Shown: in pieces, positions 1 through 8,599 of the stretch
Layout of the letters: every line of letters starts with the position of its first letter
How positions within the stretch are numbered: the first letter of the stretch is position 1
Source of the DNA: an uncultured Clostridia bacterium
Lineage (GTDB): Bacteria > Acidobacteriota > Aminicenantia > JBFLYD01 > JBBIMS01
NCBI GenBank assembly: GCA_964649495.1
Contig: CAZYPR010000003.1
Location: 17,879 to 81,878 of the forward strand
Direction of reading: 5' to 3'
DNA: 64,000 nucleotides
Notes under the pieces: generated by a model
Database searches by the model: none
What the model was told of the DNA's origin: nothing
The model's input: the letters and a program-made list of their open reading frames with translations, nothing else
Position numbers and translations under genes: made by a program

Positions 1-629
1 ATGAGGTATATGGAAGTATTGAGGATGGTTCCTTCCATGAAAATTCCCCTCTGAATCCCTCCTCTCCATATTCAGCTTCCAAGGCAGGTGCAGATCGCCT
101 TGCCTATTCTTATTTCAAGACTTTTTCTGTTCCTGTAATAATTGTAAGACCTTGCAACAACTATGGTCCCTTTCAGTTCCCTGAAAAATTAATCCCCCTT
201 TTTATTACCAATGCTCTTGAAAACAAGGAACTCCCCCTTTACGGAGATGGGCAGAATGTGAGGGACTGGCTTTTTGTAAGGGATTGCTGTAGAGCAATAG
301 ATTTTGTTTTGAAAAATGGAAAAATTGGAGAAGTTTACAATATTGGTGCAGGACAAGAAGTTAAAAATATTGAAATTGCAAAAAAGATTCTTGAGCTAAC
401 AGGAAAATCTGAAAACCTCATAAAATTTGTCAAAGACAGACCTGGCCATGATAGAAGATACTCCCTTGACTGGTCGAAAATAAGGAGTTTAGGATGGCAT
501 CCTGAAGTTGGTATTGAAGAAGGACTGGAAATAACAGTTAAATGGTATAAGGAGAACCTTTCCTGGTGGAAAGAAATAAAGGAAGAGTCAGAGGAATTCA
601 AAAAGTTTTATAAATCTTATTACGGATAG
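1..629 (+). CDS. rfbB: dTDP-glucose 4,6-dehydratase, C-terminal part (5' end lies outside the window)
   Basis: The frame is open from position 3. The translation ...SPYSASKAGADRLAYSYFKTF...PCNNYGPFQFPEKLIPLFI...GDGQNVRDWLFVRDCCRAIDFVL carries the SDR extended-family YxxxK active-site context and the RmlB C-terminal motifs. The stop codon is at 627-629. Confidence 0.85.
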   Translation, partial: EVYGSIEDGSFHENSPLNPSSPYSASKAGADRLAYSYFKTFSVPVIIVRPCNNYGPFQFPEKLIPLFITNALENKELPLYGDGQNVRDWLFVRDCCRAIDFVLKNGKIGEVYNIGAGQEVKNIEIAKKILELTGKSENLIKFVKDRPGHDRRYSLDWSKIRSLGWHPEVGIEEGLEITVKWYKENLSWWKEIKEESEEFKKFYKSYYG

Positions 630-659
630 CATAAGTATAATCTTATATGGAGGATAGAT

Positions 660-1619
660 ATGAGAGTTCTTATAACAGGAATAACAGGATTTGCGGGGAG
701 TCATCTTGCAGAATATATTTTAAAGGAGTTCCATGATGTGGAGGTGTGGGGGCTTATCCGCTGGAGAAGTCCTCTCAACAACATAATTCAAATAAAAGAA
801 AAATTACACTTAGTAGAAGGAGATTTAAAAGATTATTTCTCTTTAAGGGAAGCACTGAAAATTTCAAAGCCTGACAGAATATTCCATCTTGCTGCTCAAA
901 GCTTTGTTCCCACCTCATGGAAACTTCCCGCAGAGACCTTCTCAATAAATGCAATTGGAGAGATAAATCTTTTTGAGGCAATAAGGGAGTTAAAACTTGA
1001 TCCATTAATACATATAGCGTGTTCATCAGAGGAGTATGGTCTTGTTTACGAAAATGAGGTTCCAATAAAAGAGACAAATCCCTTGAGACCCCTCAGTCCC
1101 TATGCGGTTTCAAAAGTTGCTCAGGATATGCTTGCCTTCCAATATTTTCAGAGTTACAAACTTAAAACTGTAAGGACAAGGGCTTTTAACCATTCGGGTC
1201 CAAGAAGGGGGCATGTTTTTGTCACTTCTAATTTTGCTATGCAAATTGCAATGATTGAAAAAGGAAAACAGCCTCCTGAGATTCATGTTGGGGATCTTAC
1301 AGCTAAAAGGGATTTTTCTGATGTCAGAGATGTTGTAAGAGGCTACTGGCTTTCCCTTGAAAAGGGTGAACCAGGAGAAGTCTACAATATAAGCTCAGGG
1401 AAGGCATACCAGATAAAAGAAATCCTCGATATTCTCCTCTCCTACAGCAAAGTAAATGTAAAAGTTGTTCAGGATCCTGAAAGGATGAGACCTTCAGATG
1501 TTCTTCTCCTTATAGGAGACAGCACAAAATTTCAATCCAAAACTGGATGGAAACCATCTATTCCGTTTGAGCAAACTCTAAAGGATCTCCTTGAATGGTG
1601 GAGAGAGAGAATACAATGA
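660..1619 (+). CDS. NAD-dependent epimerase/dehydratase of the GDP-mannose 4,6-dehydratase / GDP-4-keto-6-deoxymannose reductase (Gmd/Rmd) family
   Basis: The N-terminal Rossmann motif is MRVLITGITGFAGSHLAEYIL. The protein is a 319-aa extended SDR that sits directly after rfbB, with an RBS-like ggagg upstream. Confidence 0.7.
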   Translation: MRVLITGITGFAGSHLAEYILKEFHDVEVWGLIRWRSPLNNIIQIKEKLHLVEGDLKDYFSLREALKISKPDRIFHLAAQSFVPTSWKLPAETFSINAIGEINLFEAIRELKLDPLIHIACSSEEYGLVYENEVPIKETNPLRPLSPYAVSKVAQDMLAFQYFQSYKLKTVRTRAFNHSGPRRGHVFVTSNFAMQIAMIEKGKQPPEIHVGDLTAKRDFSDVRDVVRGYWLSLEKGEPGEVYNISSGKAYQIKEILDILLSYSKVNVKVVQDPERMRPSDVLLLIGDSTKFQSKTGWKPSIPFEQTLKDLLEWWRERIQ

Positions 1620-1645
1620 AAAAGTTAAAAAGCAAAAATTAAAGA

Positions 1646-2572
1646 GTGAAAGTAAAAGTTTTCATAACTGGATTGACAGGTTTTGCGGGAGTTCATTTAT
1701 CTCAATATCTTGAAGGAGAAGGTTTTGATGTTTACGGAACTTCATGGCCTGAGAAAATAGAAAACAAAAAAATTTTCTGGCTTGATTTAAGAAATGGAAG
1801 AAAACTGAGCAAGATTTTAAAGAGTATTAATCCTGACTGGATATTTCATCTTGCTGCTCTATCCCATGTTGGTGAGTCCTGGAAAATGGTGAAAAAAACA
1901 GTTTCTACAAATTTCCTTTCAACTTTAAATTTATTTGAAAGCGCCTTTAATCTTTCCAGGAAACCAAAAATTCTTTTTATAAGCTCTGCTGAAGTTTATG
2001 GCTCGGTAAAATATAATGAACTCCCCATAAAAGAGATTCAACCCGTAAATCCTTCGAATCCCTATGCATTCTCAAAACTTTTGGGTGAAATCCTTTCCTC
2101 CCTTTACAACTCTCTTGGAATGGAAATTCTTGTTGTCAGACCCTTTAATTACACTGGACCGGGACAGAGTCCAAAATTTGTATGTTCAGATTTTGCCTAT
2201 CAGATTGTTATGATTGAGAAAGGTAAATTAAAACCAGAGATAAGGGTTGGGAATCTCTCTGTTAGAAGGGATTTCACTGATGTTAGGGATGTTGTTAGAG
2301 CATTCAGAATCATAATGGAAAAAGGAGAGAAGGGAGCTCCTTACAATGTTTGTAGTGGAAAGAGCTATTCCATTGAGGAAATCCTTCAAACCCTTCTCCA
2401 ATTCTCAAAAAAAAAGATAGAAATAATAAAAGATGAGAGGAGGTTTAGGAAAGTTGATGTTCCTGATATTTACGGCGATTATTCAAAAGTAGAAGAACTC
2501 GGATGGAAGCCAACCATCCCCATTGAAAAGACCTTACAAGACATAATAAAATGGTGGAGGGAAAAGTTATGA
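1646..2572 (+). CDS. NAD-dependent epimerase/dehydratase, a paralog of the upstream gene (Gmd/Rmd-like)
   Basis: It has a GTG start and the Rossmann motif VFITGLTGFAGVHLSQYL. It is 308 aa and clearly paralogous to 660-1619 (shared DFxDVRDVVRA and YN[IV]xSG motifs). Confidence 0.7.
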   Translation: MKVKVFITGLTGFAGVHLSQYLEGEGFDVYGTSWPEKIENKKIFWLDLRNGRKLSKILKSINPDWIFHLAALSHVGESWKMVKKTVSTNFLSTLNLFESAFNLSRKPKILFISSAEVYGSVKYNELPIKEIQPVNPSNPYAFSKLLGEILSSLYNSLGMEILVVRPFNYTGPGQSPKFVCSDFAYQIVMIEKGKLKPEIRVGNLSVRRDFTDVRDVVRAFRIIMEKGEKGAPYNVCSGKSYSIEEILQTLLQFSKKKIEIIKDERRFRKVDVPDIYGDYSKVEELGWKPTIPIEKTLQDIIKWWREKL

Positions 2573-3570
2573 AAGTCCTTTTAACAGGAGGAACTGGTTT
2601 CTTAGGTAAAAATCTTCTTAAATCACTCCTTGAAAAAGGTTTTTCTATTAAAGCTCTTGTAAGAGATGAAAATAAAAAGGAAGAATTGGGAGAGGATATT
2701 GAGGTAGTAATCGGAGACATAAGAGATAGAGAAAAACTTTTCAAAGAATCAAAGAATATTGAAGGAATATTTCATCTCTCAGCCCTTGTAAAAAGCTGGG
2801 TTAGAAGGGTTCCCGATTATTATGAGATAAATGTTGAAGGAACAAGAAACATAATGGAAATATCCCGAAAAAGAGACATTAAAACCATTTATGTATCATC
2901 ATTTATAGTATCAGGCCCTACAGGGAACAGCATCTTTGAGGAAAAGGACTTTAAAGAAAGAAAGAAATTCTACAATCACTACGAGAGGTCAAAATATTTT
3001 GCATTTATGCTTGCAAAGGAATATATAAAATGGGGAGCCCCTGTCATAATTGTTTTTCCGGGAGTAATTTACGGAGAGGGAGAACTGAGGGATTCAAACA
3101 TAATAGTAAAGAATATAGTTGACCATTTAAACGGTTCTCTTCCAGGAATCTTAGGAAAAGGTAAATCTATCTGGAATTTTGTCTATGTAAAGGATTGTGT
3201 CAACGGTATTCTTCTTGCATGGGAAAAGGGGAAAATTGGAGAATCATACATAATTGGTGGAGAAAATGCGGAAAATAGAAGAGTTTTCGAAATCGCCCGT
3301 TCCTATACAGGAGCTAAAACTCCCATGCTAAATATTCCCTATTGGATTGGTTATGGATTTGGATTAATCCAGTATTTTATTGCTGAAATCTCTAACAAAC
3401 CTCCAAAATTTGTCCACAATGATGTTCTTATCTTTAAGAGAAACTGGGCATATAGCTCAAAAAAAGCTGAGAGGGAATTGGGTTATAAATGGAAGAATCT
3501 TGAGGAAGGGATGAAAATGACCCTCGACTGGCTAAAGGAGAAGGGATATGCAAAAATTTTCAGAGGATAA
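2569..3570 (+). CDS. NAD(P)-dependent oxidoreductase of the SDR family (HpnA/cinnamoyl-CoA-reductase-like sugar epimerase/reductase)
   Basis: It starts MKVLLTGGTGFLGKNLLKSLLEKG. The ATG at 2569 has a ggaggg RBS and overlaps the previous stop as ATGA. The ORF track instead begins at 2551. Confidence 0.6.
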   Translation: MKVLLTGGTGFLGKNLLKSLLEKGFSIKALVRDENKKEELGEDIEVVIGDIRDREKLFKESKNIEGIFHLSALVKSWVRRVPDYYEINVEGTRNIMEISRKRDIKTIYVSSFIVSGPTGNSIFEEKDFKERKKFYNHYERSKYFAFMLAKEYIKWGAPVIIVFPGVIYGEGELRDSNIIVKNIVDHLNGSLPGILGKGKSIWNFVYVKDCVNGILLAWEKGKIGESYIIGGENAENRRVFEIARSYTGAKTPMLNIPYWIGYGFGLIQYFIAEISNKPPKFVHNDVLIFKRNWAYSSKKAERELGYKWKNLEEGMKMTLDWLKEKGYAKIFRG

Positions 3571-4888
3571 AAGGAAGATTCTCCATATTTTGATGGGGTT
3601 TTTCGCATTACTTCTGAGATGGCTTCCCTGGCAGATTGCTCTCCTTTGTGCTCTGGCAGCATTAATCAACAATCTCACCCTTTTAAGGTGGATAGGAGAA
3701 AAAACTTTGTTCAGAGAAAAGGAGAGAAAAGGAGTAGGTGGAATAATATTTTATCCTATATCAGTTTTCCTTTTAATACTGATTTTCAGAAATTCCCTTC
3801 ACATTGCATCAGCAGGATGGGGGATGATGGCATTTGGTGATGGAATTGCCACATTAACGGGAATTCATTTTGGAAAGAAAAAACTTCCTTGGAACAAAGA
3901 AAAGAGCTGGGTTGGGCTTTTTTCATCTCTAATTTTTGGCTATATCTCAATGGTTTTTCTCATCTGGTGGGTAGGAACAAGGTATGGCTCTCTCAACAGC
4001 TATCTTCTATTCATTGCTCCCGCAATAGTTGCGATATTTGCATCCTTAATTGAAACAATGAAAATTGGAGTAGATGACAACCTCACAATCCCCCTCTTCT
4101 CTGGGATTTTTCTTTACTATCTCTATTTAATAGAACCTGAGATTTCAAAGGCAAATCTTCCAATCATAATTAACCGTCTTCCTTTAGCTCTCTTGTTCAC
4201 TGTGCTCTTTGCAATTGCTGGATATCTGATAAAGGGGGTCAATATTTCAGGTTTCTTCTCAGGAATTATAATTGGATTGGGGGTATGGGTATTCTCAGAC
4301 TATAAAGGATTTATATCTTTACTTCTATTTTTCCTTCTTGGGACCCTCTCAACAAAAATTGGATATTCAAGGAAAAAATCCTTGGGAATAGAAGAAAAAG
4401 GTGGAGGTGCAAGGTCTTATGAAAATGTTCTTGGAAAAGGTCTATCTCCGCTTCTATTCTCAATTCTTTCCCTTCTTTCAAAAAATCCAGTTGCATTTTC
4501 CATTGCCTTTTACTCATCCCTCTGTGCGGGAACCTTTGACACGGTTTCATCTGAGCTGGGAAAAGCTTTTGGAAAGAGAACAATCTCACCATTGAATTTT
4601 AAAGAGGTGAAGAAAGGAGAACCAGGAGGAATATCTTTTGAAGGATTAATCTCTGGCTTTCTCTCATCAATTATTTTTATTTTCATTTCATTCCTCTTTA
4701 ACCAAACATTTCCATTCAAATTCTTCCTTATAGCATTAGCTCTTTCATCGATAATTTCAAACATCGCAGAATCTTACATCTCAATTTTTCTTGAGGGAAA
4801 AGGGCTAATATCCAACGAAATAACAAATTTCCTAAATACTCTGATTGCGGGAGTTTCTGGATATTTTATTTATTCTTTGATGAGCTGA
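3548..4888 (+). CDS. Polytopic membrane protein fusing an N-terminal CTP-dependent polyprenol kinase-like domain (dolichol/phytol kinase, CDS family) to a C-terminal DUF92/COG1836-like domain
   Basis: The N-terminal half contains AFGDGIATLTGIHFGKKKLPWNKEKSWVG, matching the polyprenol-kinase/CDS signature (GDGxAxxxGxxxGxxKLPWNxxKSxxG). The C-terminal half is multi-TM with GGGARSYENVLGKG, reminiscent of the DUF92 (TMEM19/VTE6-like) family. The whole protein is about 12 TM segments. Confidence 0.5.
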   Translation: MQKFSEDKRKILHILMGFFALLLRWLPWQIALLCALAALINNLTLLRWIGEKTLFREKERKGVGGIIFYPISVFLLILIFRNSLHIASAGWGMMAFGDGIATLTGIHFGKKKLPWNKEKSWVGLFSSLIFGYISMVFLIWWVGTRYGSLNSYLLFIAPAIVAIFASLIETMKIGVDDNLTIPLFSGIFLYYLYLIEPEISKANLPIIINRLPLALLFTVLFAIAGYLIKGVNISGFFSGIIIGLGVWVFSDYKGFISLLLFFLLGTLSTKIGYSRKKSLGIEEKGGGARSYENVLGKGLSPLLFSILSLLSKNPVAFSIAFYSSLCAGTFDTVSSELGKAFGKRTISPLNFKEVKKGEPGGISFEGLISGFLSSIIFIFISFLFNQTFPFKFFLIALALSSIISNIAESYISIFLEGKGLISNEITNFLNTLIAGVSGYFIYSLMS

Positions 4889-5030: not shown

Positions 5031-6272
5031 TTATCTCAATCTTTTTGCTTCTACAACTCCTTTTTTCCCATCGTAAAAGGCGTAACCTATCTTGTTTCCA
5101 TTCCTATCGAAAAACTCATAATTTATAGCAACAATTTCTCCTTCTTTGTAAGTATACTCGACTTTAATATTTCCTTGAGCTGACAAAATAGTTTTTGACC
5201 ATGTGAGAGTTTTTTCAGTGCCACGCTGTTCAATCCTCCCTGTCCAATCACGATTTGCAGGATCAGTAATTCTTCCAGGATCAAAACCCATAGATTCAGC
5301 TTGTTCAGGAGTAGGTAGATTTCTACCGCAGAAATCAATACCTCTACTTCCCCTCCCTGATGCAGACTCTGAGGGATTTATAATTGTTCTTCCCTTTTCT
5401 GTTTTTGAACTCTTTTCCCTTTCATAACCCGATTTTGTGGATTGGTCAGGATAGTTTTGAGCTGGTTGTATCCCTCTGTCTAAGGACTTCCCCCCTCTCT
5501 TTTCCTGTATGCTGATTTTCTCTTCTTTCCTTTTTTTGATAGAAACTCCAAATTTTTCATTTAATTCGTCAGCCTTTTTGCATACTGGGCTGTCACAGGA
5601 GACAATTTCAGGATTAGGTGTGTAGATAGTCTTTTTTATCCATTCCTTTCTGTCTGATGGATATTCGGTGGATCTTACCGCTCCCTTTGCAAACTCTTGC
5701 CATGCCTGACGGTCTAAGTTATCATCATTACGACCAATTACCCAGCCCGTATGGATGTCTTCCGCCAATCTGTCAAGTTGCTCTTTTGTAGGATTCTCCG
5801 ATTTTTTCACCTCCTCCATATCTCTTCTTGTTCTTTGGTCGTTTATTTCTCTTGCATTATTCAGATGATGCTCAGCCGATTGTGTATCATTATTAAGAAA
5901 ATCATTCATGGCTGAATCCATTTCTTCTATAACTTTTTTATTCTCTTCAGTTCTATCAACCTCACCTTCCATTACTTGTCCTTGTTTCCCTATAGAAATG
6001 GATGGCTTAGTAGGTAAACCTGTAAATTCAACTTCTCCTTTAAGGCTGTATGTTTTCAATCCTCCCATTGTCTTTTCAACTCCCTGACAGGGGTCATTTC
6101 CAACTGCAGGTGCAGAGAAGCCAATTGAAAAAATTGCTCTTCCAACCTCATTTTGCGCTTCTTCCTTCTTAACCCCTATTTTTTTGAAAATGGGATGTTT
6201 GGTCTGGGATGATAAAGAAGATGTAAAGAGCAATGAACCAATTAAAAACAGTACTAAATTTCTTTTTTTCAT
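5031..6272 (-). CDS. Secreted hypothetical protein, charged and low-complexity
   Basis: It has the signal peptide MKKRNLVLFLIGSLLFTSSLSSQ and a long K/E/R-rich body, with no recognisable catalytic motif. A ggagg RBS lies upstream. Confidence 0.45.
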   Translation of the reverse strand: MKKRNLVLFLIGSLLFTSSLSSQTKHPIFKKIGVKKEEAQNEVGRAIFSIGFSAPAVGNDPCQGVEKTMGGLKTYSLKGEVEFTGLPTKPSISIGKQGQVMEGEVDRTEENKKVIEEMDSAMNDFLNNDTQSAEHHLNNAREINDQRTRRDMEEVKKSENPTKEQLDRLAEDIHTGWVIGRNDDNLDRQAWQEFAKGAVRSTEYPSDRKEWIKKTIYTPNPEIVSCDSPVCKKADELNEKFGVSIKKRKEEKISIQEKRGGKSLDRGIQPAQNYPDQSTKSGYEREKSSKTEKGRTIINPSESASGRGSRGIDFCGRNLPTPEQAESMGFDPGRITDPANRDWTGRIEQRGTEKTLTWSKTILSAQGNIKVEYTYKEGEIVAINYEFFDRNGNKIGYAFYDGKKGVVEAKRLR

Positions 6273-6308
6273 ATGTAAACCTCCATTATTTTCTTTAAAG
6301 TGTATTTT

Positions 6309-7160
6309 TTAAAAAACAAAGTTTAAATTAGCGGATGAAGTTGATACGCCCTTTGTTCTGAAAGCAAGATTCAAATGGACAGGACCAAAAATATTTATAT
6401 TCACTCCTCCAATAAGGTAGACATTTTCTTTCATTTTTGAATTAAGTTCTATATCATATTTTACATTACCAATATCCGCAGGGGTCCCTTCCATAAACCA
6501 GCTTGTTTTTGGCTTCATATCTATGTATCCGCCACCGAGATAGGGTGTTAATTTCCCGAATTTTTTACTTAAAATTATTCCTGCGATGATTTCATTCACT
6601 GCTGTATCCACTCTGTATTTTACCTCTCCTCCTCCATGCTGGATTCTGAATTGCTCCTCCTCAAATTCTTTGAACTCAATCCCATTTATATACATTTTTC
6701 CGTCAGGTTTATATGTTATATAATCAGCATTTATTTCCGCTTTAAAGCCAGCAATTTCAAAAACTTTAACCTTTGCTCCCACTCCCCATATAAAAGATAT
6801 ATTCCCTTTAAATTTTAATTCCTGTGGTGGTGTTCCAGGTTCACCTGGTGGGTTCTCAAGCGAAACATTCCAATCGAGACTTGTGAAGCCTACTTTACCG
6901 TAAATTGAGAAGAAATTCAAAGGAGAAATAGAACATCTAAGGAAGGCTCTACTTGATTTTGAAGGGATTCCCTCCTTTGATGTTTCGAGAGTGTGAAAGT
7001 CAACTTTTCCGGGAAGTGTGATAACTGCCTTACCACCATTGTTTATAAGATTTCTATCACTTACACTCTCAAACTCCAAACCAAAGCTCAAAAACTTCTC
7101 CTGAGCTACTAAAGAAAAAATAAATAACATACTAAAAAGTATCCTTAGTGTGGATTTCAT
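6309..7160 (-). CDS. Outer-membrane beta-barrel protein
   Basis: It has a signal peptide (MKSTLRILFSMLFIFSLVAQE) and alternating hydrophobic beta-strand patterning. The C-terminal ...NLNFVF ends in Phe, as is typical for OMPs. A strong RBS (aggaggtaaaaaatg) precedes it. Confidence 0.55.
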   Translation of the reverse strand: MKSTLRILFSMLFIFSLVAQEKFLSFGLEFESVSDRNLINNGGKAVITLPGKVDFHTLETSKEGIPSKSSRAFLRCSISPLNFFSIYGKVGFTSLDWNVSLENPPGEPGTPPQELKFKGNISFIWGVGAKVKVFEIAGFKAEINADYITYKPDGKMYINGIEFKEFEEEQFRIQHGGGEVKYRVDTAVNEIIAGIILSKKFGKLTPYLGGGYIDMKPKTSWFMEGTPADIGNVKYDIELNSKMKENVYLIGGVNINIFGPVHLNLAFRTKGVSTSSANLNFVF

Positions 7161-7236
7161 TTTTTACCTCCTCATAAATTCTAAAATTCAAAGATGAAAA
7201 AGTCAAAGAATTTTAAATTTGAATTTAAGGTTTTTG

Positions 7237-7265
7237 TTGACAGCAGGAAAGAATTGTTTTATATT
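7237..7265 (+). promoter_or_regulatory. Sigma70-type promoter (TTGACA-17-TATATT) upstream of thiC
   Basis: TTGACA sits at 7237-7242, followed by a 17-nt spacer and TATATT at 7260-7265. The thiC ATG at 7286 lies 20 nt downstream. Confidence 0.4.
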
Positions 7266-7285
7266 TTGAACTAAGAGTCAATTCT

Positions 7286-8599
7286 ATGGAGAAATCAATG
7301 AGCTTAATAGATGAGCTAAAAAAGGGAAATATTCCTCCTTCAGTCAAGATTGTTGCTGAGGAGGAAGGGATTTCGAAAGAAGAACTTGCTGAAAATATAA
7401 TAAAGGGTCATGCTGTAATTGTTGCCAATAAACTTCACAGAAACATTAAACCTGTTGGAGTAGGTAAAAAGCTCAGAACAAAGGTGAATACAAATCTTGG
7501 AACTTCCATGGATTTTCCCCATATTAAGTATGAAATTGAGAAGCTGAAGCTTGCAATAAAATATAAAACAGACACAGTAATGGATTTGAGCACAGGGGGT
7601 AACATCGACCTTAATAGAAAGGAAATAATAAAAAATTCAACAGTTCCTGTTGGCTCTGTTCCAATTTATCAGGCGGCTATTTATGGTCTCTCAAAGTGGG
7701 GGAATATGGTAAATCTTACGGTTGATGATATTTTTCATGTCATTGAGCTTCATGCAAAGGATGGAATTGATTTTATAACTGTTCATGCGGGTTTGACTCT
7801 TAAGGGTGTTGAAAGGCTGAAAAAGCAGGGAAGGCTTACGAGCATTGTTTCAAGGGGTGGAGCTTTTATGGTTGGTTGGATGATTCATAACGAAAAGGAG
7901 AATCCTCTTTACGAGCACTTTGATAGACTCTTGGAAATTGCAAAAAAATATGAGCTCACACTGAGTCTTGGAGATGGGCTAAGACCTGGTTCAATTGCTG
8001 ACTCAACTGACTGGGCTCAGATAGATGAGCTCCTTGTTCTCGGAGAGCTTGTAAAGAGGGCGAGGTCAGCAGGGGTTCAGGCTATTGTCGAAGGACCCGG
8101 TCATATTCCAATAAATGAGATTTCAATGAATATAAAACTTCAGAAGAAGATTTGCGATGATGCTCCCTTTTATGTTCTTGGTCCTCTTGTCACAGATATC
8201 GGTGCGGGATACGACCATATAACTGCAGCGATTGGCGGAGCTGTAGCTAGTGCTGAAGGAGCTGATTTCCTCTGCTATGTTACACCAACCGAGCATATTG
8301 GACTACCTGATTTAGAAGATGTGAAACAAGGTTTGATAGCCTTTAGAATAGCTGCCCACGCAGGAGATATTGCAAAGGGAATAAAGGGGGCAAAGGAGAT
8401 GGACAGAAAGATGTCAGAGGCGAGATATAAGCTTGATTGGGCTGAGCAGGAGAGATTGAGCCTTGATCCTGAAAAGTTCAGGGAAGTTAGAATGAAGAGA
8501 GGGAGTAAATCGAAGGCATGCTCCATGTGTTCTGATCTTTGCGCAATGAAAGTAATTTCAGAATTCCTTGAGGAAGGAAATGTCCAGTATCTCTTATGA
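7286..8599 (+). CDS. thiC: Phosphomethylpyrimidine synthase (HMP-P synthase), the short archaeal/thermophile-type ThiC
   Basis: It contains ...VEGPGHIPINEI...PFYVLGPLVTDIGAGYDHITAAIGGA...FLCYVTPTEHIGLP...CSMCSDLCAMK, with the C-terminal Cx2Cx4C radical-SAM cluster motif characteristic of ThiC. Confidence 0.9.
   Translation: MEKSMSLIDELKKGNIPPSVKIVAEEEGISKEELAENIIKGHAVIVANKLHRNIKPVGVGKKLRTKVNTNLGTSMDFPHIKYEIEKLKLAIKYKTDTVMDLSTGGNIDLNRKEIIKNSTVPVGSVPIYQAAIYGLSKWGNMVNLTVDDIFHVIELHAKDGIDFITVHAGLTLKGVERLKKQGRLTSIVSRGGAFMVGWMIHNEKENPLYEHFDRLLEIAKKYELTLSLGDGLRPGSIADSTDWAQIDELLVLGELVKRARSAGVQAIVEGPGHIPINEISMNIKLQKKICDDAPFYVLGPLVTDIGAGYDHITAAIGGAVASAEGADFLCYVTPTEHIGLPDLEDVKQGLIAFRIAAHAGDIAKGIKGAKEMDRKMSEARYKLDWAEQERLSLDPEKFREVRMKRGSKSKACSMCSDLCAMKVISEFLEEGNVQYLL

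Follow-up and report, generated by a model that had tools for sequence, protein, structure and literature searches.

A natural fusion of a kinase-like and a DUF92 domain in Acidobacteriota, a candidate two-step prenol kinase

Introduction

Phytol is phosphorylated by the phytol kinase VTE5 and phytyl phosphate by VTE6, a member of the DUF92/COG1836 family and the sole prenyl-phosphate kinase with a known gene. Both enzymes also accept geranylgeraniol derivatives, and in plants FOLK, a paralog of VTE5, acts after the short-chain dehydrogenase/reductase (SDR) FLDH has reduced farnesal to farnesol (PMC9782597, PMC10849223, PMC13415981). COG1836 had been predicted as the ‘missing’ phytyl-phosphate kinase in 2011 by comparative genomics of prokaryotes (PMC3223725). 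According to reviews up to 2026, the genes for the farnesyl- and geranylgeranyl-phosphate kinases of the plant cytosol, of animals and of parasites are still to be identified (PMC9782597, PMC10849223, PMC13022625, PMC13415981). Here we analyse a gene that joins a domain of either type in a single polypeptide. It lies in a stretch of 64,000 nucleotides from an uncultured bacterium of the Aminicenantia (Acidobacteriota), deposited as Clostridia (assembly GCA_964649495.1, contig CAZYPR010000003.1, positions 17,879 to 81,878), which in the following is called the window.

An earlier note on this DNA had read the gene as a fusion of a VTE5-like and a VTE6-like domain that phosphorylates a polyprenol twice, and had linked it to the glycan made by the sugar-nucleotide enzymes encoded upstream. 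We retain the double phosphorylation as the most economical reading, since both domain assignments hold. With moderate confidence we regard the protein as a bifunctional prenol and prenyl-phosphate kinase that would supply C15–C20 prenyl diphosphate; the link to sugar-nucleotide genes and to a glycan lipid carrier was not borne out.

Results

The fusion gene and its protein

The gene and its domains are located in the window as follows.

3548..4888, + strand: fusion gene for a 446-residue polytopic membrane protein with a kinase-like N-terminal half and a DUF92 C-terminal half (from the list of open reading frames, ORFs)
3548..4171, + strand: N-terminal half (residues 1–208), predicted from profile comparison as a divergent SEC59/DGK1/VTE5-type lipid-alcohol kinase domain dependent on cytidine triphosphate (CTP)
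3830..3910, + strand: motif AFGDGIATLTGIHFGKKKLPWNKEKSW (residues 95–121), corresponding to the kinase-family core GDGxAxxxG...K-S-x-G, with a K-rich loop after it that is predicted to face the cytoplasm
4196..4849, + strand: C-terminal half (residues 217–434), DUF92 (PF01940; VTE6/TMEM19 family)
4538..4561, + strand: DUF92 core motif D331-T-V-S-S-E336-L-G338, with a K/R-rich loop after it

A Shine-Dalgarno sequence, AAAGGAGAAGGGAT, precedes the ATG. The N-terminus MQKFSEDKRKILHI is kept among orthologs, which argues that the start is assigned correctly. An AlphaFold2 model based on a 57-sequence alignment reached a predicted local distance difference test score of 93.9 and a predicted template modelling score of 0.91, which suggests that the protein is one rigid unit with both halves in a fixed assembly. 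The acidic motifs of both halves adjoin K/R-rich loops, as seen from the loop charge counts; by the positive-inside rule both nucleotide sites are presumably located on the cytoplasmic side. Searching the PDB sequences by phmmer and with the family profile yielded no relative. A Foldseek comparison of the full model with the PDB gave nothing significant either, the sole appreciable probability being that for CdsA 4Q2E (0.84, E 0.56).

The N-terminal half

For the N-terminal half the earlier note had predicted a match to PF01148 (CTP_transf_1, gathering threshold 24 bits). No such match was obtained for the whole protein at E ≤ 0.01 or for this half alone at E ≤ 10, and all Pfam and NCBIfam models together, searched to E ≤ 10, returned nothing relevant for it. 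In relatives PF01148 scores below threshold (11–12 bits, profile positions about 120–222), while a fused distant homolog, P0094, passes it in the equivalent region with 28.2 bits. The N-terminal half of P0094 retrieves standalone proteins of about 220 residues, whose source names are ‘SEC59/DGK1/VTE5 family protein’, ‘diacylglycerol/polyprenol kinase family protein’ and ‘phytol kinase’. We compared a profile of 24 N-terminal halves from the clade of the window protein, with P0094 left out (A2), to a profile of 22 standalone SEC59/DGK1/VTE5-type proteins (A3). The two aligned by hhalign with a probability of 99.5% and an E value of 2.1e-23 over 185 of about 210 columns. A hidden Markov model (HMM) made from A3 only detected the window ORF by hmmsearch with 65.7 bits, and it was the sole such ORF in the 64 kb.

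The conserved residues agree with this assignment. Among 57 full-length homologs Y69, P70, W91, G97, D98, G99, A101, G105, W115, N116, G123, E169, D177, N178 and P182 are invariant or almost so. The invariants of the kinase family that are found in the N-terminal half comprise R9, K10, H13, N42, G65, P70, G97, D98, G99, A101, G105, K119, G123, E169, D177, N178 and P182. When the two families are aligned together, each polar residue conserved at 90% or more in A3 is also the majority residue in the clade of the window protein. The peptide AFGDGIATLTGIHFGKKKLPWNKEKSW, which the earlier note had quoted as the kinase signature, is present at residues 95–121 (nucleotides 3830–3910); its columns are invariant or near-invariant in alignments A1 and A2 and match GDGlAAviGk...KSlEGS of A3.

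A better fit to the phosphatidate cytidylyltransferase CdsA was not seen. The C-terminal signature of CdsA, which we take to be the PROSITE pattern S-x-[LIVMF]-K-R-x4-K-D-x-[GSA]-x2-[LIF]-[PGS]-x-H-G-G-[LIVMF]-x-D-R-[LIVMFT]-D, is absent from the fusion protein as searched by regular expression, and HGG occurs nowhere in it. The NCBIfam CdsA models matched neither the fusion protein nor its N-terminal half. Judged by its sequence, the N-terminal half is of the kinase type within the membrane CTP-transferase superfamily, divergent and apparently intact, and not a CdsA; the dolichol/phytol-kinase-type domain of the earlier note is thus upheld by the profile alignment, the HMM score and the polar invariants. 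An exhaustive search with the N-terminal profile retrieved 7,928 cluster representatives with E values up to 1e-3, of which 422 lay at or below 1e-30. Members of the family carry only the name ‘DUF92 domain-containing protein’, and the family looks like a coverage gap of PF01148.

The C-terminal half and its relation to the N-terminal half

That the C-terminal half belongs to DUF92/COG1836, the family of VTE6, was confirmed: PF01940 matches it with 134.5 bits (cutoff 27.5, E 5.5e-39) over profile positions 2–250 of 251. The NCBIfam model TIGR00297 scores 152.7 bits, below its curated cutoff of 205.85. On these profile scores the C-terminal half is a clear member of the DUF92 superfamily that falls, because of the score below the cutoff, outside the TIGR00297 equivalog group. 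Within the core motif D331, T332, E336 and G338 are invariant in the 57 sequences.

The DUF92 half also aligns with the kinase profile (hhalign probability 84%, E 7e-6, 107 columns). In this register D-T-V-S-S-E-x-G faces G-D-G-x-A-A-x-x-G, V-S-x-E-G faces K-S-x-E-G, and E-S faces E. A direct alignment of the two halves reproduced the same register weakly (E 1e-3). Given these two alignments, the fusion protein looks like a tandem of two distantly paralogous domains.

Distribution of the fusion

A word-indexed search returned 95 homologs, most of which have 430–475 residues and contain both halves. The named homologs come from metagenome-assembled genomes (MAGs) of Aminicenantia, Acidobacteriota, Terriglobia and Thermoanaerobaculia. 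With 73% identity, ‘Candidatus Aminicenantia bacterium’ is the closest of those with a name, so that the window probably belongs to this lineage. We surveyed 80 loci, taking one genome per species. The fused architecture was found in 60 of them, almost all from Acidobacteriota, and 19 loci contained DUF92 only. A split arrangement occurred in a single locus (L062); the earlier note had raised the question of separate adjacent genes in relatives. Both halves are conserved to a similar degree across the 57 sequences.

The closest locus at species level (L010, 9262 nucleotides) encodes an SDR with 84% and an N-terminal half with 90% identity. It is titled ‘uncultured Clostridia bacterium’, and further close relatives go by Aminicenantia or Acidobacteriota; the L010 MAG is probably mislabelled or mis-binned. 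Two deviating architectures among database proteins, a reversed domain order with the kinase-like half at the C-terminus (P0140) and an SDR fused to this half (P0182), were rejected as wrong-frame gene calls. Both come from high-GC relatives and correspond to arginine-rich frames that cross the upstream SDR gene and continue into the gene of the fusion.

The P0094-type proteins represent a second fusion lineage. These metagenomic proteins of 493 residues carry a canonical PF01148 half and DUF92 in one chain. Their gene lies 53 nucleotides downstream of a gene of the squalene/phytoene-synthase family (SQS_PSY, 157 bits). The two-gene unit was found at the following positions.

L090, 4304-6659: SQS_PSY gene and P0094-type fusion gene
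L091, 7127-9482: SQS_PSY gene and P0094-type fusion gene

Conserved gene neighbourhood

Neighbours were counted in the 60 fused loci, 44 of which are well flanked. Directly upstream of the fusion gene an ortholog of an HpnA-like SDR is present in 41 loci (31 of the 44 well-flanked ones). In the window this partner gene is

2551..3570, + strand: HpnA-like extended SDR of 339 residues, conserved partner gene, sharing 23 nucleotides with the start of the fusion gene

It matches the HpnA model TIGR03466 over its full length with 220.7 bits, below the cutoff of 367.65. Its best match in the PDB is 3WJ7, a ‘putative oxidoreductase’ (E 3.8e-36), and the orthologs are 33–55% identical to one another. 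The ATG of the fusion gene lies 23 nucleotides inside the 3' end of the SDR gene and an overlap recurs in relatives (14 nucleotides in L002, 4 nucleotides in L005), which suggests that the two genes are translationally coupled.

The second frequent neighbour is an orthologous gene of the UbiA family, found within 6 kb of the fusion gene in 33 of the 60 loci (27 of 44). It is placed directly downstream in 14, upstream of the SDR in 9 and elsewhere within 6 kb in 10 loci; SDR and UbiA occur together in 30 of the 60. In the window itself tblastn found no UbiA ortholog. The UbiA proteins are 43–47% identical to one another. Their top models are chlorophyll synthase, PRK12884, DGGGP synthase and homogentisate phytyltransferase (HPT), all below cutoff. 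Among solved structures, DGGGP synthase 6M31 (E 1e-23) and chlorophyll a synthase (E 2e-17) come closest to them. DGGGP synthase, chlorophyll synthase and HPT use C20 prenyl diphosphates as substrates. We also considered whether the UbiA protein might resemble a decaprenyl-phosphate phosphoribosyltransferase and cooperate with a DprE2-like SDR; this was rejected, as the corresponding model scored 26 bits compared to 106–132 bits for the ChlG- and DGGGPS-type models.

Among the 19 DUF92-only loci there are 5 (L070, L071, L083, L085 and L089, at about 6016–7590) in which the DUF92 gene is directly followed by the same UbiA ortholog as found with the fusion. They belong to Vicinamibacteria-type MAGs and have no N-terminal half within 6 kb. 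Since DUF92-only genes also precede UbiA, the link between DUF92 and UbiA is independent of the kinase-like half.

Genes for sugar-nucleotide metabolism are rare in the fused loci: a GMD-like gene occurs in 11, a nucleoside-triphosphate (NTP)-transferase gene in 2 and an RmlC-like gene in 1 of the 60. LptD, which serves lipopolysaccharide transport, is encoded within 6 kb in 21 of them. It is located upstream of the SDR-fusion pair, including L003, L005 and 19 others; this proximity may be plain synteny or a hint at a connection with an outer-membrane lipid.

Other genes around the fusion gene in the window

On the + strand a run of SDR genes leads up to the fusion gene and ends with it. Upstream of the HpnA-like SDR gene this run comprises three further members, assigned with Pfam and NCBIfam.

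3..629, + strand: dTDP-glucose-dehydratase-like SDR, cut by the window start (frame 3 open from base 3)
660-1619, + strand: GMD-like SDR
1646-2572, + strand: epimerase/reductase-like SDR

The ORF at 258..629 had been considered as a pseudogene; this was rejected, as its frame is open from base 3 and the gene is cut by the window edge. Apart from the 23-nucleotide overlap with the fusion gene (3548-3570), the run contains an overlap of 22 nucleotides (2551-2572). The four sugar-nucleotide genes of the earlier note are thus found as four + strand genes of the SDR epimerase/dehydratase family, of which the fourth, being HpnA-like, is no recognisable sugar-nucleotide enzyme. We consider the first three (3..2572) as lineage-specific neighbours and not as conserved partners.

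The next genes downstream are convergent. At 5031-6272 (- strand) a protein of 413 residues with a hydrophobic N-terminus is encoded, which has no Pfam match, and at 6309-7160 (- strand) a protein of 283 residues with weak matches only to DUF6588 and to outer-membrane-protein beta-barrel models. An unrelated + strand block opens with the gene for ThiC, the radical S-adenosylmethionine hydroxymethylpyrimidine phosphate synthase (7286-8599, 624 bits), and continues with genes for an AP-endonuclease-2-like protein, a protein of the metallo-beta-lactamase fold and an aldehyde dehydrogenase.

Discussion

Proposed two-step prenol kinase

In the reading that we favour, the fusion protein would be a bifunctional membrane enzyme of the CTP-transferase fold, with CTP as the presumed nucleotide, that adds two phosphate groups in turn to a free isoprenoid alcohol. 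The N-terminal half, being of the SEC59/DGK1/VTE5 type, would form the prenyl monophosphate, which the VTE6-type DUF92 half would convert to the prenyl diphosphate. We infer both activities from homology. The most likely substrate would be a prenol of short or medium length (C15–C20) from the farnesol, geranylgeraniol or phytol class. The diphosphate formed would be passed on to an enzyme consuming it, which in most relatives may be the DGGGPS/ChlG-like UbiA enzyme encoded next door and in the P0094-type lineage the enzyme of the squalene/phytoene-synthase family. Supply of prenyl diphosphate fits the gene neighbourhoods, because the neighbours in two independent fusion lineages, UbiA and SQS_PSY, consume this type of substrate. 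The HpnA-like SDR may provide the alcohol by reduction of the aldehyde, by analogy to plant FLDH ahead of FOLK.

Alternative readings

The proposal of the earlier note, in which the fusion salvages a long-chain polyprenol of the undecaprenol or dolichol type for the lipid carrier of a glycan built by the neighbouring sugar-nucleotide enzymes, could draw on several observations. In the window the four SDR genes run up to the fusion gene, the orthologous loci L002 and L003 have genes for an NTP-transferase and an RmlC-like protein upstream, and LptD is close by in about a third of the loci. Furthermore, SEC59/DOLK from the same kinase family makes dolichyl phosphate for glycosylation. Yet the rarity of sugar-nucleotide genes around the fusion speaks against such a role; the conserved partners are instead the HpnA-like SDR and the DGGGPS/ChlG-like UbiA, and the P0094-type fusion is paired with a squalene/phytoene synthase and no glycan genes. 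Glycan carriers such as undecaprenyl phosphate and dolichyl phosphate act as monophosphates, so that the DUF92 step would be counterproductive for their supply. Taken together this makes the glycan-carrier role rather improbable.

The UbiA partner can also be read in a different way. The DUF92 half may be similar to CarS or CdsA and transfer cytidine monophosphate (CMP) from CTP onto a lipid phosphate made by UbiA, yielding a cytidine-diphosphate (CDP)-activated isoprenoid lipid. The lipid phosphate would be an ether lipid of the prenyl-glyceryl-phosphate type that is provided or recycled by the N-terminal half as a DGK1-like kinase, while the SDR would reduce a keto intermediate of the backbone. 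Sequence and fold are compatible with a CDP-forming DUF92 half. The SQS_PSY neighbour of the P0094 lineage speaks against DUF92 acting on the product of its neighbour, and we consider this course unlikely. Its further-reaching form, that SDR, kinase-like half, CarS-like CDP-activating DUF92 and DGGGPS-like UbiA act as one module in Acidobacteriota that produces an isoprenoid ether lipid of archaeal style, or a different prenylated membrane lipid, appears quite improbable; if true, the function of DUF92 proteins in general, including TMEM19 and the archaeal homologs, would be reopened. Finally, only one half might be catalytic, with the other being a degenerate paralog that serves as a structural or substrate-channelling partner, such that a single phosphorylation takes place. 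The distant paralogy of the halves and the divergence of the N-terminal half beyond detection by PF01148 are compatible with this, and duplicated membrane enzymes often have a pseudo-enzyme as partner. However, no polar invariant of the kinase family is lost in the N-terminal half, the motif D-T-x-S-S-E-x-G of DUF92 does not vary and conservation of the two halves is comparable, which renders a single active half very unlikely.

Novelty and meaning

Both domain families and the two-step pathway were already known. The fusion is unmentioned in a systematic fusion survey (PMC4921024), in the Lipocone preprint and in the prenol-salvage reviews, while an earlier mention of COG0170-COG1836 fusions elsewhere is possible. 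As far as the literature examined shows, new are the single-chain architecture, the divergent N-terminal domain missed by the domain databases, the non-photosynthetic Acidobacteriota hosts and the conserved set of SDR, fusion and UbiA.

If the two-step reading is true, a single chain with both steps would provide independent ‘Rosetta-stone’ evidence that DUF92 acts directly after VTE5-type kinases. It would indicate prenol salvage in non-photosynthetic bacteria of sediment and soil, and would offer a compact tool for introducing prenols into engineered isoprenoid pathways. The recurrent set of SDR, fusion and UbiA is a small testable operon. The finding is no conceptual surprise, yet it gives a useful lead on a pathway in which the second kinase is still missing for most organisms.

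Comparison with known systems

Among solved structures the model is nearest to the membrane CTP:lipid-phosphate cytidylyltransferases CdsA (4Q2E) and CarS (5GUF), which have the same superfamily fold. Their identity to the fusion protein is 15–17% and the signature of CdsA is missing here; transfer of CMP and of phosphate are indistinguishable by sequence. Closer to the N-terminal half are SEC59/DOLK and yeast DGK1, which share its core of RK..H, (Y/F)P, GDGxAxxxG, K-S-x-G and E...DN...P. Compared to these eukaryotic enzymes the N-terminal half is much shorter, is fused to DUF92 and is found in the context of prenyltransferase rather than glycosylation genes.

The P0094-type fusions contain the same two families in the same domain order in one chain. 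Their N-terminal half is 42–51% identical to standalone ‘phytol kinase’ proteins of the Acholeplasma and Spirochaete type. Overall they are about 25% identical to the window protein and differ in their neighbour, which is SQS_PSY instead of SDR and UbiA.

In the plant salvage of farnesol and geranylgeraniol by FLDH, FOLK and farnesyl-phosphate kinase, the order of steps is SDR, prenol kinase, prenyl-phosphate kinase (PMC13415981). A similar order is seen here, where the SDR gene appears translationally coupled to the candidate kinase-kinase fusion, the likeness being one at the level of gene order.

The closest counterparts are VTE5 and VTE6 of plants and cyanobacteria, which belong to the same two families and act in sequence on one isoprenoid alcohol. 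While they are encoded by separate genes, a single polypeptide is found here; unlike their hosts, the lineage carrying the fusion is non-photosynthetic and belongs to the Acidobacteriota, with an N-terminal half beyond PF01148 and a C-terminal half below the TIGR00297 cutoff. The product of VTE5 and VTE6 is passed on to UbiA-family prenyltransferases (HPT/VTE2, ChlG, MenA), and UbiA is, besides the SDR, also the commonest neighbour of the fusion.

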